Counted from the stretch's first letter, positions 20,669 to 46,463 are shown. The stretch: DNA of 64,000 nt from Bacilli bacterium (GCA_045132035.1 JBGURM010000092.1:7641-71640); one strand, 5' to 3'. Made by a program: numbers and translations. The notes: generated by a model from the letters alone, not told the origin.

Positions 20669-20675
20669 TAATTAA

Positions 20676-20708: not shown

Positions 20709-20715
20709 TATAATA

Positions 20716-20743
20716 AAAACCTCCACTTAGTAGTAGAGGTTTT
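20716..20743 (-). terminator. Rho-independent terminator after rpoC
   Basis: AAAACCTC-loop-GAGGTTTT with a T-run on the minus strand. Confidence 0.55.
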
Positions 20744-20756
20744 AGTCATAGTTTAA

Positions 20757-29345: not shown

Positions 29346-29831
29346 TTATTTATCCGCAACAGCCTTAACTGTACAGGCAAATTGACGGACAGGTGCTTGT
29401 AAGCACGATAGTAACATGGCAAGCATGCCCTCTTTGTTTGGAAGTTTGGAAACTTCTAAGACTGCGTTTTTATCAGCATATTTTCCTTCGAAGACACCAC
29501 CCTTAATTTTCAAAGAGTCACCATATCTTTTTGCGTATTTAGCGAGAACTTTAGCTCCACCACTAACATCTTCAGAGAAGAAGATAGCGTTAGGACCTTC
29601 AAGAATTTGCTTTAAGTCTGTATAACCAAGTTCATCAGCTGCTCTTTCAACTAAAGAATTCTTGTAAACGTTCATAGTAGCGTGTTCGGCTGCTAAAGCA
29701 CGTCTTAATTCTTGAGTCTTAGCAACGGTTAATCCGCGGTATTCTGCAACGATAATTCCAGAACTTGCTTGAGCTTTGCTAACGATCTCTTTAACGACTT
29801 CTTGTTTTGCGCTTAAGACATCTTTGTTCAT
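29346..29831 (-). CDS. rplJ: 50S ribosomal protein L10
   Basis: Canonical L10. Confidence 0.95.
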   Translation of the reverse strand: MNKDVLSAKQEVVKEIVSKAQASSGIIVAEYRGLTVAKTQELRRALAAEHATMNVYKNSLVERAADELGYTDLKQILEGPNAIFFSEDVSGGAKVLAKYAKRYGDSLKIKGGVFEGKYADKNAVLEVSKLPNKEGMLAMLLSCLQAPVRQFACTVKAVADK

Positions 29832-29974
29832 GTTTTCTTGACCTCCTTTTCAATTTGTTTGGTTTTTTGAGGCTCCAATATACAGTGAGAATAAAATGTA
29901 TTTTTCTTCACCTAGGTAACATTATTAAGACTCAAACGTCCGTTACTGTCTTTGGTATATTGAAATCTTTTTAA
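29832..29974 (-). promoter_or_regulatory. Putative L10 (rplJ) leader. A 143-nt structured intergenic region sits in the position of the autoregulatory L10-leader.
   Basis: Position between rplA and rplJ. Called on position only; motifs were not verified. Confidence 0.3.
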
Positions 29975-30655
29975 TTAACGACCATTAAATGTGAAGTGGA
30001 TGGCTGGACCCATGGTCGTATGGATGACAGCGTTTTTAATGTAAGTACCTTTAACTGCAGCTGGTCTTGCCTTGATAATAGCGTCAACTAAGGCGTGTAA
30101 GTTTTCTGCAATCTTGGTTTCATCAAAGCTCACTCTGGCAATAGAAACGTGCATATTTGCTTCTTTGTCAGTACGGTATTCCACTTTACCGGCTTTGATA
30201 TCTTTAATCGCACGAGCGATATCAGGATTGACTGTACCTGTCTTTGGGTTTGGCATTAAGCCTTTAGGACCGAGAAGACGAGCAACTTTACCTAATAAAG
30301 GCATCATGTTTGGAGTAGCAACAACAGCTTCGAAGTCAAACCACCCACCGGCGATTTTTTCGATCATTTCTGCTCCACCAACAAGATCTGCTCCTGCGTT
30401 AGTAGCTTCTTCAACTTTATCAGTAATGGCTAAGACTTTCTTTGTTTTACCATTTCCGTGTGGAAGGACGAGAGTTCCTCTGACTTGTTGATTGGCTTGT
30501 TTTGGGTCGACATTGAGTTTGAATGAGACATCGACTGTCGCATCAAATTTAACTGTAGAAGTTTCTTTGACGAGTTTGACAGCTTCTTCGATGCTATAGA
30601 GTTTGGTTGAGTCTACTTTTTGTAAAGCAGCAACGTATTTCTTACCTTTTTTCAT
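29975..30655 (-). CDS. rplA: 50S ribosomal protein L1
   Basis: Canonical L1. The true start is ATG at 30653-30655 (MKKGKKY) after a GAGGTG RBS; the track start is an upstream GTG. Confidence 0.95.
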
Positions 30656-30666
30656 AAGCACCTCGA

Positions 30667-31080
30667 TTAGTCGTCAACGACGATTCCCATATTACGAGCA
30701 CTACCTTCAACGATTTTCATAGCCGCTTCAATGTCATTAGCGTTTAAATCAGGTAATTTGTACTCAGCAATTTCTTTGAGTTGCGCTCTAGTGATGTGTC
30801 CGACGACACTCTTAGAACCAGTAGCGGAACCCTTTTGAATTCCAGCAGCTTTGAGAAGTAATGGAGCAACTGGAGAAGTTTTGATGACAAAGTCGCAGGA
30901 CTTGTCTTCATAAGCCGTAATGATGACTGGGACGATTTCCCCACGTCTATCCGCTGTCTTAGCGTTGAAGTCTGTACAGAACTTCGCCATGTTAATACCA
31001 GCAGATGCGAGTTTTGGTCCTGGTTTTGCTTCACCACCAGGAAGTTCCATCTTTAGGACTTTCGCGATTTTTTTACTCAC
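30667..31080 (-). CDS. rplK: 50S ribosomal protein L11
   Basis: Canonical L11. Confidence 0.95.
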   Translation of the reverse strand: MSKKIAKVLKMELPGGEAKPGPKLASAGINMAKFCTDFNAKTADRRGEIVPVIITAYEDKSCDFVIKTSPVAPLLLKAAGIQKGSATGSKSVVGHITRAQLKEIAEYKLPDLNANDIEAAMKIVEGSARNMGIVVDD

Positions 31081-31634
31081 GTGACTTTCCTCCTATATTT
31101 AGATTTGTCCGTGCTGTGGTACGGGTGAATCACCACTCTTCCACAGAACATTACATGTGTGCGATACACTCTCTCGTATGCGTAAAGCCACATGCTTGAA
31201 TAGAATATCAAATACGCATACACGATTGCAAGACAATTTTTAAGAAAATTTCATGAGTGTGTATATGTAAAAAAGTTATTAATAATATTAATAATTTAAT
31301 AGTTGGAAAAGATTAAAAAAGATGATTCTGCCAATCGAGTTTCCTCGCATTGTCGGCACAGGAGGACTAGGCTCCAACAAATCATCTACAGTTATTTAAG
31401 CATTATAATAAAGAGATTGCAACTAATAAAATGGTGTTTAACTTACATTTTAATATGATATATGAATAATAGTTGATGGATACATTCAAGTATTGGAACA
31501 CTTCTACTTATGGTCTCAAAGTACAAAATAGGTGGTTTATTGACATAAAACATTAAGTGTTGTATTGATAAGATGTTTTTAATCACAAAAAGGATGAGTA
31601 AAATTTAACTGTATTTTTGATACACTACAAATAA

Positions 31635-31663
31635 TAAAAAAGCGTTGCCGATTTGACAACGCT
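31635..31663 (-). terminator. Rho-independent terminator of the LRR/fibre operon
   Basis: AGCGTTG-loop-CAACGCT followed by TTTTTTATTATTT on the minus strand. Confidence 0.6.
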
Positions 31664-31683
31664 ATTTGATTAGAAAAATATTT

Positions 31684-34600
31684 TTAAATTGGTGCGTGTA
31701 ATCCTGTTGAATCTAACGTATATCCATTAGAGAAAGTAACTAGATTTCCACCAGAATATGACGCAACTGTTCCTAATAATATCGCATTACCACTAGCGTC
31801 TTCATGCCAGAAAAGTAATGTTCCTTTAGCGACTGTATCTGTTCCAGTTACAACGCCTGTAGAGGTAAGATCACTCAACGTTTCAACATAGAAATAAATA
31901 TCATCAATTTGTAATTGAGCTTCGTATTTTCTCCACTCACTTGTCATACTCAAACTTGTACTGTATTTATTGTAAGTAAAGATTTTTAACGCCGAGTCAT
32001 TCTTAACCATGTAGTTATTACTGCTAGTGTTATACGAATTATTTCCTAGATTAAAGCCATTTGCTCCTCCAGGAAGCTGTAATTCCACCAAACTTGGACA
32101 ATTGTTAAATACACCATTATTATAGGCTGTCCATCGGCAACTTGGATTTGTCACTCTAAACGCTTCTAAATCAGAACAAGAAGCAAAAGCTGAGGCACCA
32201 AGACTAATCTGACTTGATGTTATTTTCATCGTCACAATATCAGAGCCGGAGAATGCACTACCACCAATACTCGTTACACTAGAAGGTAAAACAATATTGC
32301 CACTTGAGTCAATCACTCCAGTGTTTGCAAAGGCCGATCCTTTAATTGAAGTTAAAGATGTAAATTTGCTAAATTCAAATTGTTCTAGTTTTCCACATCC
32401 AGAGAACGCACTTGCCTCAATAGAAGTAATACCAATCGACGCTCCGTCAACTGTAACATGTTCTAAGTTGGTGCATCCTTCAAATGTTGATTCTCCTAAT
32501 TTGTCATAAAGAGTGGAAGGAAGACTAACATCTACCAAACTTGTGCAGCCACTAAATGCTCCAGTTTTAACTATATGGACTTGGCATAATGCTGAAGTTG
32601 GCCAAAGAATATTGGTAAGGCCAGTAGAAGCAAACGCTCCATCTTCGATTACAAGAGTTCCGGTGACATTTCTAAAATCTAACGTTGTTAAATTAGAACA
32701 TCCATTGAATGCATTGGAGTTTATTGTTACTGTTCCAGTAACATTACCAAAGCTAACTGTTGCTAAACTATCACAACCAGTAAAAGCACTTGATCCGATT
32801 GTCAAAGATCCTGATAACGAGCCAAAATTCACACTTGCCAAATCTCCACAAGACTCAAATGCACTGGAGCCGATTGTCAAGTCGGTTGATACAGGAGTAA
32901 AACTAATTGATGCTAGATTTTCACAATCCTTAAACGCTGAAGCTCCGACAGTAAAACTAGAATTATTAGCGGCAGTAAATGATTCGATAGATGGGTTGTT
33001 TTTAAAAGCCTCATCACCAATACCAGCATATTGGGAATTAGTTAAATTCAAAGCGTGAGCAACAGGTGTATCGCCTGTCACGTAATATGTTAAATCAGTG
33101 TTTTCAACACTATCGAAGACACCTTTTGGAATTATATCTCCAGGAGAAACAGGGAATTCAACGTTTGCAAGTTCTTCGCACCCTTTCATCGCATATTCAG
33201 GAAGATTAAGAACGTTACCAGCGATGGTGTCTAAGTTGCACTTAAATGCTGTTCTATCGTAACTTAAAACAATCTTACCTAAGTAAACATAACTATCCGT
33301 ATCAAACTCCATCGTTCCACTTCTAGATGATTTAGTGCCGATTGGAGAAAATAATGGTTGAGGAATTGTGTTAACACCAGATTGAGTTGGATTGCCACAA
33401 ATTAATGATCTAATCCATACACCCATCTTGAATGCACCAAACATATATGGGTTTGTTTTATATAATCCATTAAACTTAATGCCATTTTTTGGTGATCCAA
33501 CAGCGGATGTATCAGCAGCACCTTCTGCTGTATAATCAGCAGCATCTCTATTTAAAACCAGCAATAATCTATCTTTATTGAATGAAATACCAGCGTCGTT
33601 TGTTGAATATAACGCACATGTATATAAAGGTGTTCCTGCAGTGGCAGAAGTATAAGTTGTGACAGTGTAATAATTAGAACTTCCACCAGCAAAAGTGATT
33701 TGTCTAAGATTTAATGCGTTAGCGAAGATGGATTGAATTTTATCTTCTGGAGAAGCAACCACCAGCTTGCTTGGATCTTCGATTGATCCGCTTGGAACTG
33801 TAACTGAATTTTCAAAGAATTTACACGTGCTTGGAATATTTAAAATAGCTTTAACACCACAGAACAAGAAAGCACTCTTGCCAATATATTCAAGGGATGA
33901 TGGCATTCCTTCTACAGGCGTATTATTTCCGCTATACGACTTAATAGTCGTAACACCGTACGTTCGAATAAACGCATAATCTCCAATGGATTTAATTGTG
34001 TTAGGCAAGACAATCGTTGTTAAATCATCAAAGCTACCTACCGCCTTAGTAGGACTTGTATCCTGACCATCACAGAAGCAGCAAGAGAAAGCTGCATCTC
34101 CAATTTTATTAACGGTACAAGTTCTATTTGTTCCGTTGATTTTGGCAGTAACAGTTTCTTTAACTGTAGCGGTTGTTAAGCTAGCAGAATTGTCATAAAG
34201 ACTATACATATAGTTCGACATTGTAGCGACATAGTTTTCACCAACTTTGCCACAAACATAAGAGCATTTATCTTCTATAACTAATTCACGACTTGTTTCA
34301 CTAGAAACGCCAACTTCAACATTAATACCATCAATAGTTTCTTTATAATGGACATTATCATATACTGGTGTTTCTTGGTTGATTTCAAAAGTATTTACTG
34401 ATTCATCGCTAGAATAATCAGACGTATAGCTTGAGCCAAAAATAAATCCAAAGTGCTTTGTTGAGGCTTCTTTTGTTGCAAAATATGCTTCATTGCCAAC
34501 TGTTTTCCATTGGGTAGCCAATGATAATGCTTTATTCTCAAAGCTTAAGTTTGTCCAGTGCCCGTCTTTTTTGTCACTATACATATTAGTGCCATATGTG

Positions 34601-36780
34601 CCTGACAAGTATATGGCCGCCCTTCCATTACCATGGAAAGCAAAACGTTGCATTCTAAGATTTGTCGATATATTTGGCAAAATAAGAGTTTGCAAAAATG
34701 GTTCTCCTCTAAAGTCATTACAATCATTACCTGCGCTACCACCACTACCAGCGTTAGATCCAATTGATTCTTGACCATAAAAATTATCACGAGTCACACC
34801 ATCTTGTGTATGGAATGTAATAGTGTGATTCTCTCTTTCTTCGAAAATAATGGTTTGAAGAGATTCGTTAAAAACGAAAGTTTGAACAGGAATAATTAAA
34901 TCAACGGTTTCGCTTTCAGAGCCTCCTCTAAAAATTACCTTCCCTAGTAAGGAGCATCCAGCAAAAGCGTGAGCGGGTCTATCTTTTTTAGTAGCTTGAC
35001 CAGTTCCAAAGTCAAATCCATATGTATTTTTATATCTATTCTTATCATCAGAAAGAGTAGCAAAATATTTAAATTTTCTTGGGAAGATGAAAGTTGATGC
35101 AGTGTGAGCTTTCCAAGTGGCGTTTCCTTTAATTTGAGTGGTTCCACCTGCAGTTCTTCCTAGAGCATAAAAGGCGTCCGTTCCGATTGTCTCGAGTCTA
35201 GAACCTCCGTTTTCTGGGGCTCTATCGTCATATGCCCATGTAAAGACAGTAACTTCAGGAAGCATTCTTTGTTCAAATACGCCAAAAGCTTCGTCACCAA
35301 TAGCTCTGATTCTCGCTGGTAAATGGAGCTCTTTAATTTTAGATTTATTATCATTGCCACCAATGCCAGAAAAGGCACGATAACCAATAAATTCAAGGTC
35401 ATCCATTTGAGATAAATCAATTCTTCCAATAATATCGGCTTCACGACCTGTCGAAGCAAGCGAATAATCACCATCGCAGGCATCAAGAGTGTCAACAACA
35501 TATAAGTTAATGTAATTTTTACCTCTAAACATTTCGTTTTCGATAGCAGTCAATGTTGGTGGCAAATATAGTCTTTTTAAGTTGGTTTTATTAATACTAT
35601 CAAAAGTATTTCTTTCAACACGAACAACCCTATTACCAGCCGGTTCAGGCATATGTTCAGGAACAGCAATAAAGCCTTTAGCGGCTGTAGGCGCTGAACC
35701 TTTATATTTTGTGATGGTTACATCACCATTTGGTTTACATGTATATTCCCATTCGGAAGTATTAAAGAAATCGGCGTTAATAATCGAATCATAATTGTGT
35801 TTATCGGTAGCAGGATTGCCACTATCGTTATACCATCCCCAGTTTGGGTGGGCAGTTATCCAATTATTAATATCAGTAGAATCGCCACAAAAAGTAATTT
35901 TAAGTCGAGTATCTCCTTCGTGATTGCAATAATTAAATGCGTGTGGTTCAATTCCAATTCCAGAAGCGTCACCAACTCCATTAGCGTCAGTAAACATTGA
36001 TCTAGAGATGTAGATGGTCCTCAAAGAAGTACATCCTTGAAATGCTCGAGAGCGAATCGTTTCAATCTTTTGAAAATAAATATTACTAGACAAAGCAGAA
36101 CAACCATTAAACGCTTCCTCGGCAATTTCTTGAATCGAAGTAGGAAGTGACAAGGTTGTTAAAGAATTACATTTAAAAAAGCAGAAAGAAGGGATTCTTG
36201 TTAATGTAGAATATTGAGTACCTTCGCTGTCTGGCAAAACTTCACAGTTACAATCCAATGCTTTAGAGGAACTGTCTTGGTTGCTATTAATAAAATTAAC
36301 AGTTGTTAAGTTAGAACAACTATAAAATGCGGCGTCTCCGATTTCGGAAACAGTATATGGTATAGCAATTGAAGTAATTCTGCTATACATGAACGCTTCA
36401 AAGTCAATGGTAGTAACGTTAGTATCACTTCTAAAAGTAATATTTGAAGCGATATTCCCATGGAATGCATTATGCATGATTCCAGTCACTCTCTTGCCAT
36501 CTGTTGGATTGACGGAAGGGATAACAATGTTAGCGCTATGTGTTTTCTTTACACTATCTTTTAAAGAAATACCATAGGTATCTCCTGGAAGAAGATAATA
36601 ATCAAAAATGCCATCTGTACGAGCGTATGTACCATCTAAAATATAGTTAGGTTTGATGTCCGGACCTTTTGGAAAATCAGGAACATATCTAATGTTTGAA
36701 AAAGTTAAAACAAGAGTAAACAAAAGAAAAGCGGAATCGAATATTAATCGTTTTTTAGTTAATAATTTCTTAAAAATCAT
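31684..36780 (-). CDS. BspA-type leucine-rich-repeat (LRR_5) giant surface protein, 1698 aa
   Basis: N-terminal signal/anchor. Dozens of ~23-aa repeats of the form F..C..L..V.F....LTIG..AF (for example SISFTPVSTDLTIGSSAFESCGDLASVNF). Confidence 0.7.
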   Translation of the reverse strand: MIFKKLLTKKRLIFDSAFLLFTLVLTFSNIRYVPDFPKGPDIKPNYILDGTYARTDGIFDYYLLPGDTYGISLKDSVKKTHSANIVIPSVNPTDGKRVTGIMHNAFHGNIASNITFRSDTNVTTIDFEAFMYSRITSIAIPYTVSEIGDAAFYSCSNLTTVNFINSNQDSSSKALDCNCEVLPDSEGTQYSTLTRIPSFCFFKCNSLTTLSLPTSIQEIAEEAFNGCSALSSNIYFQKIETIRSRAFQGCTSLRTIYISRSMFTDANGVGDASGIGIEPHAFNYCNHEGDTRLKITFCGDSTDINNWITAHPNWGWYNDSGNPATDKHNYDSIINADFFNTSEWEYTCKPNGDVTITKYKGSAPTAAKGFIAVPEHMPEPAGNRVVRVERNTFDSINKTNLKRLYLPPTLTAIENEMFRGKNYINLYVVDTLDACDGDYSLASTGREADIIGRIDLSQMDDLEFIGYRAFSGIGGNDNKSKIKELHLPARIRAIGDEAFGVFEQRMLPEVTVFTWAYDDRAPENGGSRLETIGTDAFYALGRTAGGTTQIKGNATWKAHTASTFIFPRKFKYFATLSDDKNRYKNTYGFDFGTGQATKKDRPAHAFAGCSLLGKVIFRGGSESETVDLIIPVQTFVFNESLQTIIFEERENHTITFHTQDGVTRDNFYGQESIGSNAGSGGSAGNDCNDFRGEPFLQTLILPNISTNLRMQRFAFHGNGRAAIYLSGTYGTNMYSDKKDGHWTNLSFENKALSLATQWKTVGNEAYFATKEASTKHFGFIFGSSYTSDYSSDESVNTFEINQETPVYDNVHYKETIDGINVEVGVSSETSRELVIEDKCSYVCGKVGENYVATMSNYMYSLYDNSASLTTATVKETVTAKINGTNRTCTVNKIGDAAFSCCFCDGQDTSPTKAVGSFDDLTTIVLPNTIKSIGDYAFIRTYGVTTIKSYSGNNTPVEGMPSSLEYIGKSAFLFCGVKAILNIPSTCKFFENSVTVPSGSIEDPSKLVVASPEDKIQSIFANALNLRQITFAGGSSNYYTVTTYTSATAGTPLYTCALYSTNDAGISFNKDRLLLVLNRDAADYTAEGAADTSAVGSPKNGIKFNGLYKTNPYMFGAFKMGVWIRSLICGNPTQSGVNTIPQPLFSPIGTKSSRSGTMEFDTDSYVYLGKIVLSYDRTAFKCNLDTIAGNVLNLPEYAMKGCEELANVEFPVSPGDIIPKGVFDSVENTDLTYYVTGDTPVAHALNLTNSQYAGIGDEAFKNNPSIESFTAANNSSFTVGASAFKDCENLASISFTPVSTDLTIGSSAFESCGDLASVNFGSLSGSLTIGSSAFTGCDSLATVSFGNVTGTVTINSNAFNGCSNLTTLDFRNVTGTLVIEDGAFASTGLTNILWPTSALCQVHIVKTGAFSGCTSLVDVSLPSTLYDKLGESTFEGCTNLEHVTVDGASIGITSIEASAFSGCGKLEQFEFSKFTSLTSIKGSAFANTGVIDSSGNIVLPSSVTSIGGSAFSGSDIVTMKITSSQISLGASAFASCSDLEAFRVTNPSCRWTAYNNGVFNNCPSLVELQLPGGANGFNLGNNSYNTSSNNYMVKNDSALKIFTYNKYSTSLSMTSEWRKYEAQLQIDDIYFYVETLSDLTSTGVVTGTDTVAKGTLLFWHEDASGNAILLGTVASYSGGNLVTFSNGYTLDSTGLHAPI

Positions 36781-36798
36781 ATAGCTTTCCTCTCCTTT

Positions 36799-39700
36799 CT
36801 AAATTTCCGGATAAACAATCTTATCGTCGGTACTATCGCCTTCATTGAATAATGTAACTGTGGCGTTTGATAACCCAGTAACTGGGTGACTATGGGCGTA
36901 ATTTGATACAGCTATGTATGTAACTGCTGAGATATAATCTGTCGATATTACAAACTTATTTGTGGCTTGATTATATACAAAGCTGACATTAGCGGGAGCA
37001 GCATCGAATGTAGATCTATCAGAGTTGACTAATGCAACATAGCATCTTTGATTATCTACTCTACTGTCGCTTGGATTATATACAGTAACAGGGTGTTCTT
37101 TATCTAATGTAATATTAGTAGTTACCACACCTGTGCCTGGATTGTATGAGTAACATTCCTTTTTAACAAAGTCGACATTCTTGACTTCGTCTCTACTAGC
37201 AAACGCATTATCTTCGAAGGTGATTTGTCCATCAGTTTGTCCTTGAGCACAGACATAGAATAATTTTGCAATACCCTCTTTTCCACTATCTCTATTAACA
37301 CCTGAAGCAGAACCTATACAATATCTACCTGGTTCAAGTTTAAATGTGTGGGCATACAATCTTGTTTTTCCAGAAGAATAACCATATTCAGTTGTTCCGT
37401 AAGTGTTCGGGATAGTTGCATTAGTATGAATTGTGGCAGGCGTAAACGTTGAACCATCAGAATTATAGACACCAATTTGACCAACGTTTTGGTTATCAAC
37501 TTTATAATCAAAATAAGCTAGGTGGTCGTCTTTCGGCATAAAAAACGCAAAGTCAGGATCCTCAAATGTGCGGTTGACATATGGTTTTCCAAGATACTCA
37601 TCTCTTTCATCACCAATTTTATAAATACCGACAGCGGCTGGTTTTGTTCGATCGACTAGACCAGCAACAATCGTTACATTAGCTGTGTTTGTTTTGATTT
37701 CAAAATTAATCATATTTGCTACTGGCTTTTCATAATCATCATTATCGATACAATACATTTTCATACCCGTGCCAGATAAATCTGGAGTAGCGAAACTTGA
37801 AGCAAAGTAGCGAATTTCTTGTCCTAAGCTATTTCTTAACATGACACCACTCTTACCACTATTAGCAGAGGCAGGGATAGTGTGTCCGTCCTTATCGACA
37901 AGAACACTTTCAAAATACTTAGACATAAATGAACCACCGACAGTGTTTTTATCTACATCTGAAAAATAGAATCCTTTGCCTGTTCTATAGTTGTAGTCCA
38001 TTTTAAAACGTACAATATAGTTTTGGTGCCAATTACGTTGCTCGAAACTTTCAACGGTTATTTGGTCATAATTAGGGAAGTGATATCCTGGATGGAATGA
38101 AGATGGGGTGTTGGAGTTAAGAGCGTTTCTAAATTTATCAAATGTTGGGCCCTTATCTTTTTGATATTCACCAGTTGCATAATAAATATAATAGTTCGAA
38201 TCAACAGAAACATCTTCATTTCTAATAACTGATTTTTCTAAGTCGTTACTTGCTTCATAGTCCATACCCGAACCAGATTCGTTTGTAGCAATAGTAAAAA
38301 TACCTAAATCAGTATTAGAAATGATTTTCTGAGGTCTAAATGAAACGGAATCTCTTTCTAAAGTTACATGTTGGCCACTACCATTTATTCTTAAGAAATC
38401 ACGATATTTTAGTGACGAAGAAGGTGTATAAGAAACGCCACCACCAGGTAACGAGGTAGAAGTGTCAAATGAATGAGAGTCAATAATTTCATTATAAACA
38501 GATGTAAAGTCAAGAACACCAATGTCTTTACCAGTAGTTGTTGCTGCATCGCTTTCTTCAGCAGCGATGTTGTGAACGGTACCACCAATAAGACCGATTA
38601 ATCCATAATTTGAACCGTTTTCCATCGCATGATATGTAGAAAGTCCAGTAATTGTGTTACCGTTATTCATTTCAAATCTACCATTATAGACATAACAATC
38701 ACTAACCGAACCATCACAGTGACCAATAAGAAGACCTATATTGTTTGTGTGTTCAGAACCTAGGTGAGCGTTCATTGTTAAAATAGATGAATCTTTCGCA
38801 TTCAAAGCAAAATCAAAATCTAAGCTCATAACAACTTTTGAATGGTCTAGACCATAGTTATCAGTTGTACTAGCAATCAAAGAAACCGACGAAGAAGCAC
38901 GAAGTGGGAATGTGGTGGCTTCAGTTTTTTCTTTTTTAAAAAATCTATAAACTTCTTCTATATCGACAGAAACTTCGCTGTTTCCATCTGTATATGTTAG
39001 AAAATCACCAGAAATAAGGAATTTATACTTATAGTTTGTGTTTGTTGAGGTAAAGGAAACAACTGGTACATCGTAATCAATTGATGGCATTGGATCACCA
39101 CTTGATTCATCCCATTCGAAAAAATCTTCAGCGTCGAATTCAAGGAATTTGAATTTTCCAGTGTCTGTATTAATAAAAGTATCTGATTCAGAGCCTTCAA
39201 TATCATACACAAATGACGTTCCTACTGCTACAGGAGCGGATGGTCCATATAGTCCAGCAAATGAATCAGTATATCCAAGAGAGTTAATTGTGACATTACT
39301 CAAAAATAAATCATGAATACTAGAACCATGCGCTGTATAACCAAATAAACCAGCGTCTTGTGGATCAGCATAAACAGTTAAATTCTTAATCTCTAATCCT
39401 TGACCATCAAACTCTCCATAAAAAGGAACTGCTTCAGAGCCAATTGCGTTGATAGGTTCATAATCGTAGTCAGAATCGCTCATATCAAGGAAAGGAACAG
39501 TCGTTGTTGACGTATCATCAAGGTAACACAATGGTTTGCCAGTTAAGTCGCCCGCCAAGCCTTCCAAACCAAGCTGGAAATAAGTGCTTTCTTTAAAAAC
39601 TCCCAATCCTTGCAAACGAGACAAGTTATACATATGGCGTGGTCTAGTGATAACATATGGATCGCCAGGATCGCTTGGGCCATTAGTTCCTTTCGGCCTT

Positions 39701-39861
39701 CCAGTACCACGTTCAAAGTAAGAACGAAGAGAAACCTCGCCATAAAAGCCATCACTTTCAGCATCCTTGATATATGCGGATAAAGTGAAAGGAACGATCA
39801 TACTCACAAAAAGAAGAGTACAAATTCCAATATATGCTATTAAAACTTTTTTCGATTTCAT
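36799..39861 (-). CDS. Large secreted protein (1020 aa) with a TasA/camelysin-like N-terminal region
   Basis: Signal anchor then LSAYIKDAESDGFYGEVSL (compare camelysin AYFSDKEVSNNTFAAGTLDL). Beta-rich D/G/T-rich body. Confidence 0.45.
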   Translation of the reverse strand: MKSKKVLIAYIGICTLLFVSMIVPFTLSAYIKDAESDGFYGEVSLRSYFERGTGRPKGTNGPSDPGDPYVITRPRHMYNLSRLQGLGVFKESTYFQLGLEGLAGDLTGKPLCYLDDTSTTTVPFLDMSDSDYDYEPINAIGSEAVPFYGEFDGQGLEIKNLTVYADPQDAGLFGYTAHGSSIHDLFLSNVTINSLGYTDSFAGLYGPSAPVAVGTSFVYDIEGSESDTFINTDTGKFKFLEFDAEDFFEWDESSGDPMPSIDYDVPVVSFTSTNTNYKYKFLISGDFLTYTDGNSEVSVDIEEVYRFFKKEKTEATTFPLRASSSVSLIASTTDNYGLDHSKVVMSLDFDFALNAKDSSILTMNAHLGSEHTNNIGLLIGHCDGSVSDCYVYNGRFEMNNGNTITGLSTYHAMENGSNYGLIGLIGGTVHNIAAEESDAATTTGKDIGVLDFTSVYNEIIDSHSFDTSTSLPGGGVSYTPSSSLKYRDFLRINGSGQHVTLERDSVSFRPQKIISNTDLGIFTIATNESGSGMDYEASNDLEKSVIRNEDVSVDSNYYIYYATGEYQKDKGPTFDKFRNALNSNTPSSFHPGYHFPNYDQITVESFEQRNWHQNYIVRFKMDYNYRTGKGFYFSDVDKNTVGGSFMSKYFESVLVDKDGHTIPASANSGKSGVMLRNSLGQEIRYFASSFATPDLSGTGMKMYCIDNDDYEKPVANMINFEIKTNTANVTIVAGLVDRTKPAAVGIYKIGDERDEYLGKPYVNRTFEDPDFAFFMPKDDHLAYFDYKVDNQNVGQIGVYNSDGSTFTPATIHTNATIPNTYGTTEYGYSSGKTRLYAHTFKLEPGRYCIGSASGVNRDSGKEGIAKLFYVCAQGQTDGQITFEDNAFASRDEVKNVDFVKKECYSYNPGTGVVTTNITLDKEHPVTVYNPSDSRVDNQRCYVALVNSDRSTFDAAPANVSFVYNQATNKFVISTDYISAVTYIAVSNYAHSHPVTGLSNATVTLFNEGDSTDDKIVYPEI

Positions 39862-41423
39862 CAGAATCTCACCTCCTTTAATGGAGATGGAGCTGGTGCC
39901 AATTCAATATGTTCCTCAGCACTAAAGTAAAAATAGAAATCACGGTCTAGAAGATACGTTTTACCAACACGTTCTTGATTGGTGAAAAATTGCATATATT
40001 CGTAATCGTAGTCAATTGCGATATAACAGTGATAAGTTACTGGAGTATTTGACTCAGGAATCAAAGTTGAATCAGTATTTTCTTTAACATGTATATCACA
40101 TTCCACTGATGTATCTAACTCGGTATCGTTTTGGAATTTGTTATATGGATCAGCACGATCAACAATTCTATTTTTTCCAGCAACTATCTCGTAATCGGTT
40201 TGATATGGATGAGGCATTGCTCTAAAAGCATCCCACGCCGCTGTTGGAGTTGCGTATGGAACGGCAGTAAACATGGTATAGAAAGCATAAAAATCACTTG
40301 CGTTAAGTGGATTACGATGTGAACTGTCGACATAACCACGGTATGTATATGCATTTGTAGTAGCATATTTTCCTGTGTAGTTATAAATATAAGGCACTGA
40401 CGTTAAATCTGGATTTCTTATGATTTTTAATCCAGTTTCAACTTCATTTTTGTTTTGATAACTTAATTCAACATCTAACACAACTTGAGTGTTTTGTTCA
40501 TAAATTGCGTAAGGTAAATAGTCATTGATTGACTCGTAAGTTGCCGCAGCAGTGCCACGGTAATCAATGGTAATCTTAGTTGGATCAATTAAGTTATTAC
40601 CAATAATCGCATTGTCATTTCTTGAAGTGAGAATGATATCTAAGTAATGAGTTCCACCAGCGTCAACGCGATATTGGAATGTGTAAATACCAGCTTTTAA
40701 ACATTTAATACTCTTACCATCTTCAGAAGTAAATCTAGCATTACCACTTGGTGAAGTTGATGGTGAATTATATGTATAGTAATCACATGTTGGGCCAGAA
40801 ATTGTTCCAGCGTTAAAAAGAATAAACTCTGCTCCAATAGAAACAACAACATTATCAACAGTTACTGGTTCACCCACTACTGGAGCATCTTTTCTAGCAA
40901 ACGCTGTTGCGGTTAAAGTTGACCATTCATTTGTAGAAACTCCAGTAAATGTCGAATCACCCATCAAATAATAATGGAAATCCTGAGAGTCTTCATAATA
41001 AATGTTTGTGGCACTATTTGAAGAGCTGGTTGTTGTATATGAATGTGCACTTCCATTTATGCCTAAAGTAAATGTCACTGTGTTCGCTAAATTACTTGGG
41101 GTATTAACCGAAGCATCTTCAACAACATAACTCTTAACTTGGCCAACACCATCATAATCAACGAATTCTGTAGAGTTGTTATGATATGGGTAAATGTATT
41201 TATATGCAGAGACTTTTTCAATTGTGACACCTAAGTCACCAGAGAAAGTCGCCATTTGAGCGCCACCATTGTTAGAAAGATAGAACCATGCAAAAGTTGC
41301 ACTAGACAAAGCAAAAGCACTTCCAATCGTAAGAGCCACCATCGCAATAATGGTTTTCTTACTCTTGAGGCCATTTCCTTTGACCTTATTAGCTAAATTT
41401 GTGAATACCTTTCCTATTTTCAT
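39861..41423 (-). CDS. Secreted protein with a SipW-cognate-type signal peptide, TasA/camelysin (M73)-like, 520 aa
   Basis: ...ALSSATFAWFYLSNNGGAQMATFSGDLGVTI parallels TasA GGGTWAAFNDIKSKDATFASGTLDL. Shares a 1-nt overlap with the downstream gene. Confidence 0.5.
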   Translation of the reverse strand: MKIGKVFTNLANKVKGNGLKSKKTIIAMVALTIGSAFALSSATFAWFYLSNNGGAQMATFSGDLGVTIEKVSAYKYIYPYHNNSTEFVDYDGVGQVKSYVVEDASVNTPSNLANTVTFTLGINGSAHSYTTTSSSNSATNIYYEDSQDFHYYLMGDSTFTGVSTNEWSTLTATAFARKDAPVVGEPVTVDNVVVSIGAEFILFNAGTISGPTCDYYTYNSPSTSPSGNARFTSEDGKSIKCLKAGIYTFQYRVDAGGTHYLDIILTSRNDNAIIGNNLIDPTKITIDYRGTAAATYESINDYLPYAIYEQNTQVVLDVELSYQNKNEVETGLKIIRNPDLTSVPYIYNYTGKYATTNAYTYRGYVDSSHRNPLNASDFYAFYTMFTAVPYATPTAAWDAFRAMPHPYQTDYEIVAGKNRIVDRADPYNKFQNDTELDTSVECDIHVKENTDSTLIPESNTPVTYHCYIAIDYDYEYMQFFTNQERVGKTYLLDRDFYFYFSAEEHIELAPAPSPLKEVRF

Positions 41424-41425
41424 AA

Positions 41426-42295
41426 CTATGCAATCGAGAGTGTTAAGCTTGAAAGAGTTAATCCTTCATAGCAATTACTATTAAAACCAGTTAAATCACC
41501 ACTTGTGTAGTGTTCATAATAACCAGTAGTTTTATTGAGTTTATAGAATGTTCCTTCATCATTAGAGAATTCAATTGTGAAGAAAACGATTGTACGATAT
41601 CCATCTAAATTATCATCAACATCACTAACGACGACAACTTCTTCAACTGGGTTAGAAGCAGGATCGTCCTCTGAATAATCAAAAACATCAGTAATTGGAG
41701 ATGGATTAGCTCTTAAATCAGCGTAGTAACTTTGATATCCAGTTGCGATATCGGCTTCATCGTCACCAGAATCAAGCACACTATAAGATGCTCCATAAAT
41801 ATCAATTGCCCAAGAAAGATGAACTGGGGCGTCTTCTCCCACTGAAGCAGAACCTGTAACTTCACTCCAATCAGTGATTGATAATTTGCTCATTGCTTTA
41901 GAGCCTTTGATGATAAATGCATATGTCAATTTATGAGCTGGCCATAAATGTTCAATATTTGTTGGATCTGGATCATCAGTGACTACTCCATCTTCGTAAT
42001 TGATTTTGGTAAACGAAGCATCTTCATATTCAACTTGGTAGCCAGAAAAAATATCGGTAATTGAATTTTGGTTTCCATCATGAGATTCTGACTCATCGTC
42101 AGTGAAAGAATCTAAGTAATACATCTCATATTCAATTTGTTCTGGGGTCATAACTTTGAAAGAGCCACCGCCAACAGAAACAGATTGATTTGTAGAGAAC
42201 CAAGCATATGTTCCAGATATAGCGGCAAACAAAGAAAAGACCGCCGTCAACGTGGCAGCAACTATTTTTATTCTTGTTAATGTCTTTCTTTTCAT
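41426..42295 (-). CDS. Secreted protein with a SipW-cognate-type signal peptide, TasA/camelysin-like, 289 aa. First gene of the operon.
   Basis: MKRKTLTRIKIVAATLTAVFSLFAAISGTYAWFSTNQSVSVGGGSFKV. GAGGGG RBS. Confidence 0.5.
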   Translation of the reverse strand: MKRKTLTRIKIVAATLTAVFSLFAAISGTYAWFSTNQSVSVGGGSFKVMTPEQIEYEMYYLDSFTDDESESHDGNQNSITDIFSGYQVEYEDASFTKINYEDGVVTDDPDPTNIEHLWPAHKLTYAFIIKGSKAMSKLSITDWSEVTGSASVGEDAPVHLSWAIDIYGASYSVLDSGDDEADIATGYQSYYADLRANPSPITDVFDYSEDDPASNPVEEVVVVSDVDDNLDGYRTIVFFTIEFSNDEGTFYKLNKTTGYYEHYTSGDLTGFNSNCYEGLTLSSLTLSIA

Positions 42296-42313
42296 TTTGC
42301 CCCTCTACTATTT

Positions 42314-42352
42314 AAAAAGCCAGTCGCCTTATTAGTAGTTAGGCAGCTGGCT
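42314..42352 (-). promoter_or_regulatory. Terminator-like hairpin plus U-run inside the 5' leader of the fibre operon, immediately upstream of the RBS. Possible attenuator.
   Basis: Minus strand AGCCAGCUGCC-loop-GGCGACUGGCU (10/11 bp) then UUUUUAAAUAGUAGAGGGGCAAAAUG. Confidence 0.45.
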
Positions 42353-42611
42353 ATCTTAATTAATATCAAGACCCTTTAGTTTTGCGTCGCCGAATCACTC
42401 CGGTTTTGCTTTTATCATAACTTTTTTGTGCACTTATTATATAATACGAAATTTTTTGTTGTAAACATTTTTTTGCGAGCACGCATTATGTGCATAAGAA
42501 ACGACAAGAAAAAAATGTAGAACCAATCAATAAAAGTGCAACATTTATGTTGCCAGTTTTCCTATAAGTTGATTTTTTTAGTGTGGAGTGTATAATACAA
42601 ACAGTTTCATT

Positions 42612-43994
42612 ATGAAAACCAAAAAGAAAGCTAATAGAGGCACTTCCCCATATCTACTCGTTATCTTGTCATTCATTGTAGTGATATTTTTAGGTGCTTC
42701 TCTTTTAACCTTACCAGGAGCACATAAAGACGCTCAGTGGGGAAATTTCCTTGATTCTCTTTTCATTGCTACTTCCGCGACATGTGTGACAGGTTTATCA
42801 ACTTACGCTAACGGAATCGGTGGAGAATTAACTCTTTTTGGCCAAATCGTTGTCTTAGTGATGATTCAAATTGGTGGACTTGGATTTATTACCATCTTCA
42901 CATTCTTTATCTCACTATTCATGAAAAAGTTACAATTTAGAGATCGTTTATTCCTCTCTCAAGCAGTTAACAGTAACACTATTTCTGGTGTTTCTCGTTT
43001 TGTTAAGAGAGTGATTACTATCGTTCTTATTTCCGAACTACTCGGATTCGCATTAGGTTTACCAGTATTTTTGAACGTTAAGGAATACTCAGTTCCAGAG
43101 GCGCTTTGGGCATCATTATTTACATCAATCTCAGCATTTAATAATGCTGGATTTGATATTTTTGGCCCATATTCTTTACTAAGAATTGCAGAAAATCCTA
43201 TCATGTATAATTTACCTACATGGGCGTATTATTACTTATGTTCTTATATAATGATTCTTATTGTATTAGGTGGCATTTCTTTTATCACAATTATTGAAAT
43301 TGTTATCTTAAGAAAGAAGCCAAGACAATGGAATGCATTTGTAAGAATTGTCTTAATCGCGACTGGTTCTTTACTCGTTGGTGGATTCGTTTTATTCTGC
43401 TTAACTGATGTTCTTAATGGCACTATGACTCCTTTTGAAGCCTTATTCCAAAGTGTCACCTTAAGAACTGCAGGATTCGCTAGTTTTGATCAAAATAACT
43501 TATCAGTTGCAGGTAAAACAATTAGCTGCTTATTTATGTTTATTGGTGGCTCACCAATTTCCACTGCCGGTGGTATTAAAACCACTACTATCTTCATTAT
43601 TGTTTTATGCTTAGTTAGATTCTTACAAGGAAAGAGTATTGTTGCTTTTAAAAGAGAATTCACAAGAACTAGTATTCTTAAAGCAATGACCTTAGTCTTC
43701 CTTTCACTTTTAAATGTTGTTGTCGCCTTTGTTGTTGTTTCTTCTTTTGAACAAGGTAAACCACTTGCGACAACTCAAAACGTCTTCTTTGAAGTGTTCT
43801 CTGCCTTTGGCACTGTTGGATTATCAACAGGTTTAACACCTTCTTTAGAAGTTGGTAGTAAAATCATCCTCATCCTATTGATGTTCTTTGGTCGACTTGG
43901 TCCAATCACCTTGTTCCAACTCTTCCAAGCAAATATGGATGGAGAAGAAAATATTCATTATAAACGCGTAAGCGCAGATGTTATTATTGGTTAA
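42612..43994 (+). CDS. TrkH/KtrB-family K+ uptake membrane subunit
   Basis: Repeated pore-loop GxG motifs (TGLST, GGLGF, TAGF, TAGGIKT). TTGATT-N16-TGTATAAT promoter at 42569-42597. The track ORF starts at GTG 42588. Confidence 0.8.
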   Translation: MKTKKKANRGTSPYLLVILSFIVVIFLGASLLTLPGAHKDAQWGNFLDSLFIATSATCVTGLSTYANGIGGELTLFGQIVVLVMIQIGGLGFITIFTFFISLFMKKLQFRDRLFLSQAVNSNTISGVSRFVKRVITIVLISELLGFALGLPVFLNVKEYSVPEALWASLFTSISAFNNAGFDIFGPYSLLRIAENPIMYNLPTWAYYYLCSYIMILIVLGGISFITIIEIVILRKKPRQWNAFVRIVLIATGSLLVGGFVLFCLTDVLNGTMTPFEALFQSVTLRTAGFASFDQNNLSVAGKTISCLFMFIGGSPISTAGGIKTTTIFIIVLCLVRFLQGKSIVAFKREFTRTSILKAMTLVFLSLLNVVVAFVVVSSFEQGKPLATTQNVFFEVFSAFGTVGLSTGLTPSLEVGSKIILILLMFFGRLGPITLFQLFQANMDGEENIHYKRVSADVIIG

Positions 43995-44011
43995 TAGGAG
44001 GAATATCTAAT

Positions 44012-44683
44012 ATGGCCCACAAATCATTTGCAGTAATCGGACTCGGACAATTTGGTCGATCAATCGTTAAAGAATTAGTGGATAACGGAATGGACGTTAT
44101 CGCGATTGATAACAACGAAGAAACAGCTAGAGAAGTCGCTAACGACTTACCTACTACATTCATCGCTGATTCCACTGATGAAAAAGCATTAAAAGAATTA
44201 GGCATTAGTGATGTTGACGCGGCGATTGTCGCCTTTGGCGATAACCAAGAAGCCAGTGTTTTAACCACTGTTATTTTAAGAGAATTAGGCGTTAAAAATA
44301 TCATTGTTCGTGTTGATGATGATTACTATGTCCCAATCATGAAGAAATTAGGCGCTACTGAAGTTATCACTCCTCAAAAAGCTGCTGGTACTGCTTTAGC
44401 GAACCGTATCGGTAATGAAGACTTCCAAGACTACTATAAGCTTGACGCAAAATATTCAGTTGTTTCTATCATCATTAATCCAGGATTCTTCCCACAAACA
44501 TTAAAAGATATGAATCCTAAAAATGTTTATGGTGTTAACGTTGTCTTAATTAAAAGAGGCGCTAAATCATTTGTCCCAGGTGGTACTGATTCACTCCTCC
44601 CAGATGACACTGTATATGTTGTTGGTACATCTAAAGAAATCAACGCCTTTAGAGAAGCAATTAACGGAAAGAAAAAGAAATAG
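44012..44683 (+). CDS. KtrA/TrkA-N-type K+ uptake regulatory subunit (RCK, NAD-binding)
   Basis: FAVIGLGQFGRSIVKEL Rossmann motif. 223 aa. Immediately downstream of the membrane subunit. Confidence 0.8.
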   Translation: MAHKSFAVIGLGQFGRSIVKELVDNGMDVIAIDNNEETAREVANDLPTTFIADSTDEKALKELGISDVDAAIVAFGDNQEASVLTTVILRELGVKNIIVRVDDDYYVPIMKKLGATEVITPQKAAGTALANRIGNEDFQDYYKLDAKYSVVSIIINPGFFPQTLKDMNPKNVYGVNVVLIKRGAKSFVPGGTDSLLPDDTVYVVGTSKEINAFREAINGKKKK

Positions 44684-44755
44684 TAAAAATAAAATGCACG
44701 TAGTGATTGAAACACAATGTGCATTTTTTATAATCAAAAATGGAGAATAGATTCC

Positions 44756-45001
44756 ATGAAGTGCGTAAAATATGAAGAATTTGTAAAAAATGCCGAATAT
44801 TATCTCGGTCTTTTAGAAGTTGAAGAAAAGATTTACGTCATTAAAGATGGTGGAACTTTTGCTATATTAGAAAATCCAAGAAAAATCGCATATGAAGAAT
44901 TCATAAAATTAAGAGGCTGCTTAAAAGATTTGGACGACGGTAGAGATTATAAAGAAATCATTGGCGACGCCATCTTAGAGGCAAACGGAATCAAAGCATA
45001 A
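44756..45001 (+). CDS. Small hypothetical protein with a weak Phd/YefM-like antitoxin pattern
   Basis: GGAGA RBS before ATG 44756 (the track starts at 44717). ...IYVIKDGGTFAIL... No partner toxin. Confidence 0.3.
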   Translation: MKCVKYEEFVKNAEYYLGLLEVEEKIYVIKDGGTFAILENPRKIAYEEFIKLRGCLKDLDDGRDYKEIIGDAILEANGIKA

Positions 45002-45004
45002 GAA

Positions 45005-45041
45005 TCAAAAAAGCAACGTTTTTGTGAAGCGTTGCTTTTTG
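45005..45041. terminator. Bidirectional rho-independent terminator between the convergent 44756 gene and nusG
   Basis: AAAAAAGCAACG-loop-CGTTGCTTTTT. Confidence 0.65.
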
Positions 45042-45056
45042 TTTGCTTTAACAAAG

Positions 45057-45695
45057 TTAAATCTTCTCAATTTCAGAGAAATCAACTTCAACTTTAGTTG
45101 TTCTACCAAAGAAGATGGTTTCGATTTCCACTGCACCAGTATCTTTATTAATAGAAAGGATTCTTCCTTCTGTTCCTTCAAGAGTACCGTGAATGACTTT
45201 GACATAGTCACCAACTGCGTATCTGTCATACATGCTTTCGTCGACCATGCCCATTCTCTTAAGGACTGGTTCGATTTGTTCTCTTGGAACTGGGAATGGT
45301 TTTGTACCTTTACCAGCAGATCCAACGAATCCGGTAACACCTGGAGTGTTTCTAACAATATACCAAGCATAGTCAGTCATAATCATTTCCACAAAGACAT
45401 AACCTGGATATAAGTTCTTCATTCTGGTTTTACCTGTTGGTAAACCATCTTTCATAACTTGAACTTCTTGTTCGACAACAACAATACGGAAGATGAGATC
45501 ATCTAATCCCATTGATTCAACACGTTTTTGTAAGTTGTATGCGGCTTTTCTTTCGTGAGTGGAATATGTTGAAACAACATACCACGCTTTTTCACCTAAT
45601 TTTTGTTCAGCTTTATTTTGTTCTTCTTCAGTAATATCAGTATTAGTGTCTGAGAACGCTGTTTTTAAATTATTATTATCAACCATTTTGTTCAC
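45057..45695 (-). CDS. nusG: Transcription termination/antitermination factor NusG, with a ~35-aa N-terminal extension
   Basis: NGN domain (KAWYVVSTYSTHE...) and KOW motif (VGDYVKVIHGTLEGTEGRI). Confidence 0.9.
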   Translation of the reverse strand: MNKMVDNNNLKTAFSDTNTDITEEEQNKAEQKLGEKAWYVVSTYSTHERKAAYNLQKRVESMGLDDLIFRIVVVEQEVQVMKDGLPTGKTRMKNLYPGYVFVEMIMTDYAWYIVRNTPGVTGFVGSAGKGTKPFPVPREQIEPVLKRMGMVDESMYDRYAVGDYVKVIHGTLEGTEGRILSINKDTGAVEIETIFFGRTTKVEVDFSEIEKI

Positions 45696-45700
45696 TCTCC

Positions 45701-45898
45701 TTATTTCATGCCTTTGAATGCGTCTGAAAGAATTTCAATTAATCTTCTACCAGCAACATCTTCTCCGAAAAGTAGTAATCCTGTGATTCCCGCAATAATG
45801 ATAACGACGATGATTGAAGGAATGAGAACTTCTCTTTTTGGCCAACGTACACGTTTGCCTTCTTTAATAACACCTTTTGCGAATTTTCCTAATCCCAT
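45701..45898 (-). CDS. secE: Preprotein translocase subunit SecE
   Basis: 65 aa with a single TM. Sits between rpmG and nusG. Confidence 0.85.
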   Translation of the reverse strand: MGLGKFAKGVIKEGKRVRWPKREVLIPSIIVVIIIAGITGLLLFGEDVAGRRLIEILSDAFKGMK

Positions 45899-45907: not shown

Positions 45908-46054
45908 CTATTTACTTGCCTTATGAAGTGTTTGTTTATTGCAGTGTTTGCAATATTTCATAAGTTCTAATTTTTTATTACTTTCTTTATTTACTGATGT
46001 AACGTAGTTTCGAGATAGACACTCGGAGCAAATCAAAAGAACTTTAACTCTCAT
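45908..46054 (-). CDS. rpmG: 50S ribosomal protein L33. Not in the ORF track.
   Basis: Reverse translation [48 protein letters not shown] with a C4 zinc ribbon. GGGAGG RBS. Confidence 0.8.
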
Positions 46055-46219: not shown

Positions 46220-46462
46220 ATGGAAATTAATATCTATGAAGCAAAAACAAACTTATCAAAATTAGCACAATTATTGGTTGATGAAAAAGAAGATGAAATC
46301 ATTATTTGCAAAAATGGAAATCCAATTGTAAAAATGACAAAAATTCAAAAAGACAAAAAAACGAAAAGAATCGGTGCCGCCAAAGAAGAAATGAAAGGTT
46401 ACAACATTTCTCTTGAAGAATTCAATTCAATATCAGTAATTGATGATTTTTACGGTGATTGA
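46220..46462 (+). CDS. Type II antitoxin (Phd/prevent-host-death family) paired with VapC
   Basis: MEINIYEAKTNLSKLAQLLVDEKEDEIIICKNGNPIVKM... ends in ...DDFYGD. Its stop overlaps the toxin start (TGATATG). Confidence 0.7.
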   Translation: MEINIYEAKTNLSKLAQLLVDEKEDEIIICKNGNPIVKMTKIQKDKKTKRIGAAKEEMKGYNISLEEFNSISVIDDFYGD

Positions 46463-46463
46463 T

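Follow-up and report, generated by a model that had tools for sequence, protein, structure and literature searches.

Introduction

The genes running from rpmG-secE-nusG through rplK-rplA-rplJ-rplL-rpoB-rpoC to the str operon make up a supercluster that is not always uninterrupted. Work on a model organism shows secE-nusG and rplKAJL-rpoBC to be two distinct operons, and multigene insertions between them have been documented (PMC6735719). Here we analyse the corresponding interval in a 64,000-nucleotide stretch of DNA from Bacilli bacterium (GCA_045132035.1, JBGURM010000092.1:7641-71640; hereafter the window), in which nusG and rplK are not contiguous and lie 13,976 bp apart (31081-45056). This interval carries, on the minus strand, an operon of four genes (289, 520, 1020 and 1698 amino acids (aa); the first three products are called p289, p520 and p1020, and the fourth is a leucine-rich repeat (LRR) protein), headed by a class-I riboswitch for cyclic di-guanosine monophosphate (c-di-GMP) and referred to below as the module. 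On the plus strand it carries a trkH gene, a trkA gene (TrkA_N+TrkA_C) and a 94-aa open reading frame (ORF), p94. We consider it quite probable that the interval represents a plasticity zone where two operons meet, with three layers: an ancient trkH-trkA pair, a variable slot and a recent riboswitch-led unit of 11.2 kb that arrived within the lineage.

As in some Gammaproteobacteria (PMC6735719), the cargo is located at an operon boundary and neither operon is broken, and the locus provides a clear example from Bacillota of the pattern documented in Gammaproteobacteria, namely that the supercluster tolerates cargo only at operon boundaries. It differs in phylum, coming from uncultured Bacilli, in that the two genes are separated in the whole retrieved set of relatives (no adjacency; 28 loci show both genes), and in that the separation is built up in layers, two variable slots accompanying a K+ transporter pair of fixed position; moreover, an overlap between terminator and promoter of the two operons is impossible here. 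Architecture and regulation alike have known counterparts. The novelty lies in the cargo, an operon family annotated by no protein-family library, and in the layered history of the interval, where a long-established K+ transporter pair is combined with two variable slots and a single recent insertion of 11 kb.

The regulation recalls the Bc2 riboswitch of Bacillus thuringiensis, which is likewise a class-I c-di-GMP riboswitch in the 5' untranslated region (UTR) of a Bacillota surface adhesin, Cap/CbpA (PMC4933901, PMC7423583); the repression of cap has been attributed to the riboswitch region (PMC4933901). The cargo is different, as Bc2 governs a single collagen-binding protein, whereas here a four-gene operon combines three families lacking a Pfam model with a BspA-type LRR protein. 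Bc2 reportedly follows a terminator-based ON-switch logic. In Clostridioides difficile, several riboswitches per genome govern surface and colonization factors of the c-di-GMP regulon, including CD2831 (PMC6200980, PMC6447587), and relatives of the window similarly display up to three consecutive riboswitch-led surface operons. In contrast to C. difficile, every riboswitch here belongs to class I, and none of the four proteins has the C-terminal sorting signal found in CD2831, a sortase substrate.

The TasA/TapA/SipW and CalY systems of Bacillus (PMC9674648, PMC4292775) offer a third comparison, since p289 and its paralogue-like partners also begin with a hydrophobic helix, here ending in an invariant A-W-F, followed by a beta-sandwich. 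The signal-peptide cleavage region of TasA has a phenylalanine at P2' (PMC10269814), which the A-W-F of p289 resembles. However, there is no sequence-level relation to TasA/CalY, and the module neither contains nor adjoins a gene for a sipW-type peptidase. In addition, tasA is controlled by protein regulators, the module by a riboswitch.

Finally, trkH-trkA resembles KtrAB/TrkAH systems, as a TrkH-family membrane subunit is co-encoded, at an intergenic distance of 17 bp, with an RCK regulator carrying one TrkA_N and one TrkA_C domain (KtrA-type architecture). The TrkH of the window scores under the NCBIfam TrkH subfamily cut-off (267 versus 331) and we therefore give no subtype; the distinctive trait of the pair is its fixed place between nusG and rplK.

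A probable layered history of the nusG-rplK interval

To place the interval among its relatives, a NusG scan retaining one genome per species gave 53 loci, onto which the proteins of the window were mapped (loci and additional contigs are designated by L numbers). All 53 come from uncultured rumen or gut Bacilli, labelled at NCBI as Erysipelotrichaceae, Bacillales, Bacilli or ‘Candidatus Enteromonas’. In none of them does nusG adjoin rplK, and the gap measures 2,333-8,991 bp in the 28 loci showing both genes. Directly after nusG, and on the opposite strand as in the window, trkA and trkH are found in 30 related loci, whose NusG identity to the window ranges from 94% to 71%; the identities of TrkA and TrkH each correlate with that of NusG (r=0.91 for both). 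Because the pair occupies the same position in 30 loci and has diverged in step with the core genes, it is best seen as an ancient feature of the lineage. The module is distributed otherwise. It is absent between trkH and rplK in all 25 relatives reaching rplK, where these genes are 189-859 bp apart, against 11,507 bp in the window. In other words, the module is present or absent at the same site among close relatives, which is not the case for trkH-trkA.

BLAST breakpoints place the insertion at approximately 31320-42565, i.e. about 11.2 kb, in the spacer that separates the divergent promoters of trkH and rplK. On the left side, homology to the region upstream of rplK stops at around 31297 when compared with L003, and at 31319/31320 when compared with L060 and L062. 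On the right side, homology to the region upstream of trkH stops at around 42565, just outside a promoter-like site of trkH (TTGATT-16-TATAAT, 42569-42596; the probable ATG start of trkH is at 42612). The insertion replaces roughly 90-100 bp of non-conserved AT-rich sequence present in L003 and L004.

When six core proteins are concatenated, neighbour joining groups the window with L003 as its sister (94% aa identity) and nests it inside (L005, L006), (L010, L012) and deeper lineages, all devoid of the module at this site. Since the window is nested among module-free species, one acquisition on the terminal branch is a far more parsimonious explanation than numerous losses. The gap has other contents in more distant lineages: an ArsR plus a P-type ATPase in L037 and L050, and, in L014, cysK-like and AddAB-like genes brought in by a rearrangement.

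The module itself is found elsewhere in the lineage. The order p289-p520-p1020-LRR is kept in every contig long enough to show it, p520 being the second gene of every module; the homologues of p289, p520 and p1020 share 39-67% identity with the proteins of the window, those of the LRR protein 33-55%. A c-di-GMP-I riboswitch precedes the p289 homologue by 60-190 nt in all 20 modules whose upstream region could be inspected. Contigs reaching further upstream (L056, L067, L070, L072, L078) have a desulfoferrodoxin gene ahead of the module; trkH takes this place, forming a junction with the module, only in the window and in its near-identical relatives L065 and L066. To judge from these contigs, the module is an old lineage-endemic operon with its canonical home near desulfoferrodoxin. 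It is often flanked by one or two more riboswitch-led operons.

As a separate observation, two or three consecutive operons led by c-di-GMP-I riboswitches follow desulfoferrodoxin in relatives (L056 2739-22965, L057 1-20389, L067 7398-23039, L070 1987-19447), and their proteins have no Pfam family. These operons encode, respectively, proteins of 251-338 and 1246-1408 aa; the four-gene module; and proteins of 277-316, 312-333 and 371-402 aa, and form a dense c-di-GMP ‘surface regulon’ island.

Under the layered reading, a Ktr/Trk-type pair would already have separated nusG from rplK in the common ancestor of this clade of uncultured rumen and gut Bacilli, and would have been inherited vertically. 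The slot between nusG and trkA would take different small cargo in each species, here a Phd/YefM-like ORF. Later, on the terminal branch leading to this species, a self-contained unit of 11.2 kb, consisting of a sigma-70-type promoter, a riboswitch, genes for three putative secreted proteins and for the 1698-aa LRR protein, and an intrinsic terminator, would have been placed in the trkH/rplK spacer, leaving both promoters and the rplK leader intact. The rplKAJL genes would remain autonomous via their conserved promoter and leader, insulated by the terminator of the inserted operon. The arrival most likely took the form of an intragenomic relocation or duplication, or of a recombination with a close relative, and not of a mobile element, because the module is lineage-endemic, is housed elsewhere by desulfoferrodoxin and has a native composition. 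More generally, an operon boundary can be a stable home for some genes, such as a K+ transporter, and a variable slot for others.

Alternative explanations

A mobile element whose hallmarks have since decayed could also have delivered the module. At its left end, the insertion includes an orphan spacer of about 320 bp for which no locus has a homologue; near-identical strains are polymorphic at the site; and toxin-antitoxin genes are frequent in the neighbouring slot. Yet no integrase, transposase or recombinase domain was detected in any ORF of 31081-45056 (Pfam, NCBIfam), no tRNA in the entire 64-kb window, and neither target-site duplications nor flanking direct or inverted repeats nor terminal repeats at the boundaries, where only short chance-level repeats occur. 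The composition is also genome-typical: the GC content of the module (0.36-0.37), its GC content at third codon positions (GC3; 0.24-0.25) and its codon-usage distance (0.56-0.95) are all within the range of the other genes of the window. As the module family is, in addition, confined to the same lineage with a conserved chromosomal home, delivery by such an element appears improbable.

A second possibility is that the order nusG-trkAH-module-rplK was ancestral for the clade and that the module was lost at this site in every other species. Module-like genes do occur near nusG in L049 and L043-L047, but these differ in orientation and neighbours and lack trkAH. The nested position of the window would moreover require many independent clean losses against one gain, no module remnants were found by BLAST in the trkH-rplK spacers of sister species, and homologous modules sit at the other conserved locus, by desulfoferrodoxin, wherever the upstream region is visible. 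An ancestral arrangement is thus very unlikely.

The earlier note on this DNA, made from the sequence alone, had viewed the whole 13.9-kb interval as one accessory insertion bounded by two terminators, and the break in a widely conserved order, the accessory-looking genes and the terminators on the flanks all invite the reading of a single recent, horizontally acquired island. Pfam did bear out the identities, strands and order of rpmG-secE-nusG and rplKAJL-rpoBC, as well as the split of 13,976 bp between nusG and rplK, and both terminators exist (31663-31641, 9-bp stem and T-run; 45008-45040, 15-bp stem). What stands of the single insertion of about 14 kb is its riboswitch-operon part of about 11.2 kb, which is lineage-specific and missing at this site in relatives; for trkH-trkA, shared by 30 loci in step with the core, the synteny table refutes it. 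Nor do the edges fall at the two terminators, since homology to relatives resumes at around 42565 and not at 45056, and the true edges (about 31320 and 42565) lie inside the divergent trkH/rplK promoter region. The comparison of composition that the note had proposed gave core-like GC and codon usage throughout, hence no sign of foreign origin, and mobility genes, tRNA and repeats are missing. A single recent island now has a minimal chance of being correct. Broken conserved gene order alone is thereby no evidence of recent horizontal transfer, and it was synteny across relatives that distinguished, within what looked like a single island, the long-standing genes from the newcomers.

A chimera at the junctions, conceivable for a metagenome-assembled genome (MAG) whose closest reference contig breaks right after nusG, is hardly credible: the Logan contigs L054 (window 40311-42679) and L059 (30242-34577), which are independent assemblies of run SRR25030089, match the window at 100% identity over both junctions. 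L065 and L066 come from two further samples and other assemblers and show colinearity and about 94% identity over trkH, riboswitch, p289 and p520. The agreement of these independent contigs shows the junctions not to be assembly artefacts.

Several observations nevertheless weigh against the layered reading. The contig of the closest species representative, L001, ends 137 nt past nusG, and the arrangement there is not visible. L060 and L062 are 97.7% identical to the window over rplK-rplA, yet a small gene of another kind precedes the rplK promoter in them; because they differ there, the left junction is either polymorphic or further rearranged within the species. Directly after nusG, L049 has a riboswitch-led operon encoding 271-aa and 1172-aa proteins, and p1020-like and LRR genes are found a few kb downstream of nusG in L043-L047. 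With these loci in view, an old association of this type of module with the nusG neighbourhood is conceivable. The data cover the 64-kb window only, within which relocation and duplication fit alike. Lastly, we infer the functions of the proteins from domains and folds only, and the similarity of p289 to TasA is weak (template modelling (TM) score 0.26-0.31).

The small gene of L060 (1-166) and L062 (1-271), MKKRSKKQIAKRKKEFRFHK..., is unmatched and divergent from rplK. It was checked as a possible occupant of the trkH-rplK spacer of other relatives and rejected, as it is not there.

From a small sample, L049 and L043-L047 hint that the nusG neighbourhood is a recurrent landing place. A broader proposal would join all these elements: the nusG-rplK boundary would be, in this taxonomic order of uncultured rumen and gut Bacilli, a long-lived recombination hotspot repeatedly capturing operons gated by c-di-GMP riboswitches (this species, L049, L043-L047), and the module would encode an undescribed surface fibre, switched on by c-di-GMP, with an ‘AWF’ N-terminal segment for processing or donor-strand exchange, a TasA-like assembly and the BspA-type LRR adhesin as cargo or tip. 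We regard this joint proposal as speculative and rather doubtful.

The riboswitch-led operon and its predicted products

The inserted operon starts with a promoter-like site (TTTACA-18-TATAAT), the top-scoring one in a 19-kb scan, located 16 nt upstream of the riboswitch aptamer. The latter had escaped the earlier note, as had a methyltransferase gene between rplL and rpoB. Its match to the c-di-GMP-I model is full length (model positions 1-87 of 87), and it lies on the same strand as the operon in a 5' UTR position, 43 nt separating its end from the ATG of p289. In the minimum free energy (MFE) fold, a terminator hairpin, AGCCAGCUGCCU...AGGCGACUGGCU with U5 after it, takes the place of the second aptamer helix, and the 3' strand of aptamer helix P2 doubles as the 5' arm of this terminator. 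Aptamer and terminator are mutually exclusive, so that an ON switch is predicted; its polarity and its response to the ligand are both expectations derived from the fold. High c-di-GMP would stabilize the aptamer and block the terminator, turning on the operon and, with it, a surface adhesin or fibre apparatus for attachment.

A like platform design exists in the leaders of L055 and L057 and in the first leader of L056. These leaders (L055 1603-1790, L056 7443-7570, L057 4717-4900) contain two copies of the aptamer 3' strand (GAUAGCCAG...) separated by a terminator-like hairpin (AACCUCAA...UUGAGGUUUU), a more complex platform than the single-terminator version of the window. At its other end, the inserted operon is closed by an intrinsic terminator whose stem, with 5 GC pairs, is followed by the tail TTTTTATTAT.

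No Pfam or NCBIfam family was found for p289, p520, p1020 or p94, relaxed thresholds included. The AlphaFold (AF2) model of p289 (predicted local distance difference test (pLDDT) 89) shows an N-terminal helix followed by a beta-sandwich, and the A31-W32-F33 at the end of the hydrophobic N-terminal helix is invariant across 70 sequences. The best PDB match of this model is the TasA fibre 8aur_A, with a probability of 0.87 and the low TM score given above. Searched against PDB, the profile of the p289 alignment (A1) retrieved nothing relevant and no TasA chain. Neither Pfam Peptidase_M73 nor the NCBIfam model of SipW-type signal peptides matched p289, p520 or p1020 (E up to 0.1-1), and no SipW-type peptidase domain was found in the module or elsewhere within the 64-kb window. 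As the TM score is weak and the TasA/camelysin and SipW sequence models fail, ‘TasA-like fibre’ is here a lead and not a membership. Compared with p289 by hhalign, p520 matches in the N-terminal segment only, and the same segment occurs in the first genes (251 aa, 271 aa) of neighbouring riboswitch-led operons in relatives.

Homologues of p1020 number more than 218, and no Pfam family covers them. The sole PDB match of its model with E < 0.001 is local and falls on a putative pectate lyase (8wc1), in the carbohydrate-binding domain; matches to haemagglutinins were disregarded owing to their low probability. The 1698-aa protein qualifies as BspA-type, with LRR_5 scoring 274 bits (cut-off 27.7) over 7 stretches, and the NCBIfam model of the HupY/LrrG adhesin matches it only locally. 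Read directly, the four C-termini contain no LPXTG sorting signal, and no hydrophobic or charged tail either. We infer adhesion as the likely function of the operon from LRR_5, the N-terminal hydrophobic helices, the beta-rich AF2 models, the carbohydrate-binding-like domain and the analogy with riboswitch-controlled adhesins (PMC4933901, PMC6200980). This widespread unannotated operon family, with a riboswitch before every module examined, could provide a handle on the regulation of attachment in uncultured small-genome rumen Bacilli.

Promoter and leader of rplK

When the 223 nt preceding rplK in 22 genomes are aligned (A2), a -35 element (TTGCAA, 31231-31226) and an extended -10 element (TG, 31210-31209; TATTCT, 31207-31202) are conserved. 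Between promoter and gene, the leader (31081-31195) has an invariant core, GUGG.AG.G...C.C..CA, and a GGAGG Shine-Dalgarno sequence, both also kept in lineages with wholly different gap content. Because it is conserved across relatives whatever lies upstream, the promoter is evidently inherited and not a consequence of the insertion. The earlier note had argued that the separation from nusG makes a promoter in the gap necessary for rplK: such a promoter does exist, but the necessity was over-read, as the two operons are already separate (PMC6735719). The leader corresponds to no Rfam family at gathering or E-value thresholds, and may be an L1-binding autoregulatory site by analogy with Escherichia coli.

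An Rfam E-value search of the region upstream of rplK and of the orphan spacer returned only noise. A hairpin with U6 can be folded in the orphan spacer (31387-31315), but it is not more stable than shuffled sequence (z=-1.1), has no Rfam match and no copy in other loci except L059, which has the same sequence.

The slot between nusG and trkA

The nusG-trkA slot (window 44684-45056) is a second variable site, whose content differs between relatives: a Phd/YefM-like ORF in the window and L003 (L003 11056-11292), HipB and HipA in L011 (10761-12277), L013, L015 and L016, NfeD and an SPFH/Band-7 gene in L019 (10760-12504), and in L009 (11350-11904) a 184-aa gene without assigned identity. p94 itself has no Pfam match, even at relaxed thresholds; its homologue in L003 reaches the cut-off of Pfam PhdYeFM_antitox, which suggests that p94 is a relative of Phd/YefM-like antitoxins. 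Because it is symmetric, with a U-tract on either strand, the hairpin between the convergent p94 and nusG genes can terminate in both directions. Exact-protein look-ups of the TrkA and p1020 of the window gave no match.

L009 and L052 are two contigs of one MAG (CAMOEI01), each with a nusG-trkAH-rplK region and with differing identity to the window, which suggests that this bin is a strain mixture or is contaminated.

Features of the locus

Table 1. Features of the window in and around the nusG-rplK interval, by position.
Feature	Position	Strand	Evidence
rpoC	20757-24662	-	Pfam
rpoB	24676-28278	-	Pfam
Class-I (MTS) methyltransferase, rplL/rpoB interval	28309-28917	-	Pfam MTS, 143.8 bits
rplL (L7/L12)	28947-29321	-	Pfam
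rplJ (L10)	29346-29831	-	Pfam
L10 leader RNA	29882-29973	-	Rfam RF00557, 50.5 bits (gathering score 44)
rplA (L1)	29975-30661	-	Pfam
rplK (L11)	30667-31080	-	Pfam
rplK promoter and structured leader of ~115 nt	31081-31231	-	22-sequence alignment A2
Hairpin and U6 in orphan spacer	31315-31387	-	Fold
Orphan spacer, ~320 bp, part of insertion	31320-31640		BLAST breakpoints
Intrinsic terminator of inserted operon	31641-31663	-	9-bp stem, 5 GC pairs, TTTTTATTAT tail
1698-aa BspA-type LRR surface protein (predicted)	31684-36780	-	Pfam LRR_5 and LRR_8
p1020, putative large multidomain, mostly beta surface protein	36799-39861	-	AF2 pLDDT 87
p520, putative second secreted protein	39861-41423	-	N-terminal ‘..ATFAWF..’ segment
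p289, putative secreted or anchored beta-sandwich protein	41426-42295	-	95 homologues
Expression platform: terminator hairpin and U5	42313-42352	-	MFE fold versus Rfam alignment
c-di-GMP-I riboswitch aptamer	42339-42420	-	Rfam RF01051 (GEMM-I), 55.8 bits (gathering score 35)
Promoter-like site of inserted operon, TTTACA-18-TATAAT	42436-42465	-	11/12 matches
trkH/ktrB-type K+ transporter	42588-43994	+	Pfam TrkH, 154.5 bits; NCBIfam TIGR00933, 267 bits
trkA/ktrA-type K+ transport regulator, 223 aa	44012-44683	+	Pfam TrkA_N, 106 bits; TrkA_C, 45.9 bits
p94, 94-aa small ORF	44717-45001	+	41% identical homologue in L003
Hairpin with A5/T5 flanks, between convergent p94 and nusG	45008-45040	both	Terminator scan, 15-bp stem
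nusG	45057-45695	-	Pfam NusG and KOW
secE	45701-45898	-	Pfam SecE
rpmG (ribosomal protein L33)	45908-46054	-	Pfam Ribosomal_L33, 62.6 bits

The gene content and order of the supercluster are retained (rpmG-secE-nusG...rplK-rplA-rplJ-rplL-(methyltransferase)-rpoB-rpoC...rpsL-rpsG-fusA-tuf, all on the minus strand), the str operon (rpsL, rpsG, fusA, tuf) lying downstream of rpoC at 18725-14436. The position of the methyltransferase gene between rplL and rpoB is kept in relatives.

The rpoC-rpsL junction (18726-20756) is likewise interrupted, over about 2 kb, by a 118-aa ORF without family (18955-19311, minus strand) and by an AAA_33/KTI12-like kinase gene (20204-20668, plus strand). Directly upstream of rpmG lies a VapBC-like toxin-antitoxin pair (46220-46856, plus strand), in which the gene of an 80-aa protein with a weak Phd/YefM antitoxin match overlaps that of a 138-aa PIN-domain protein.

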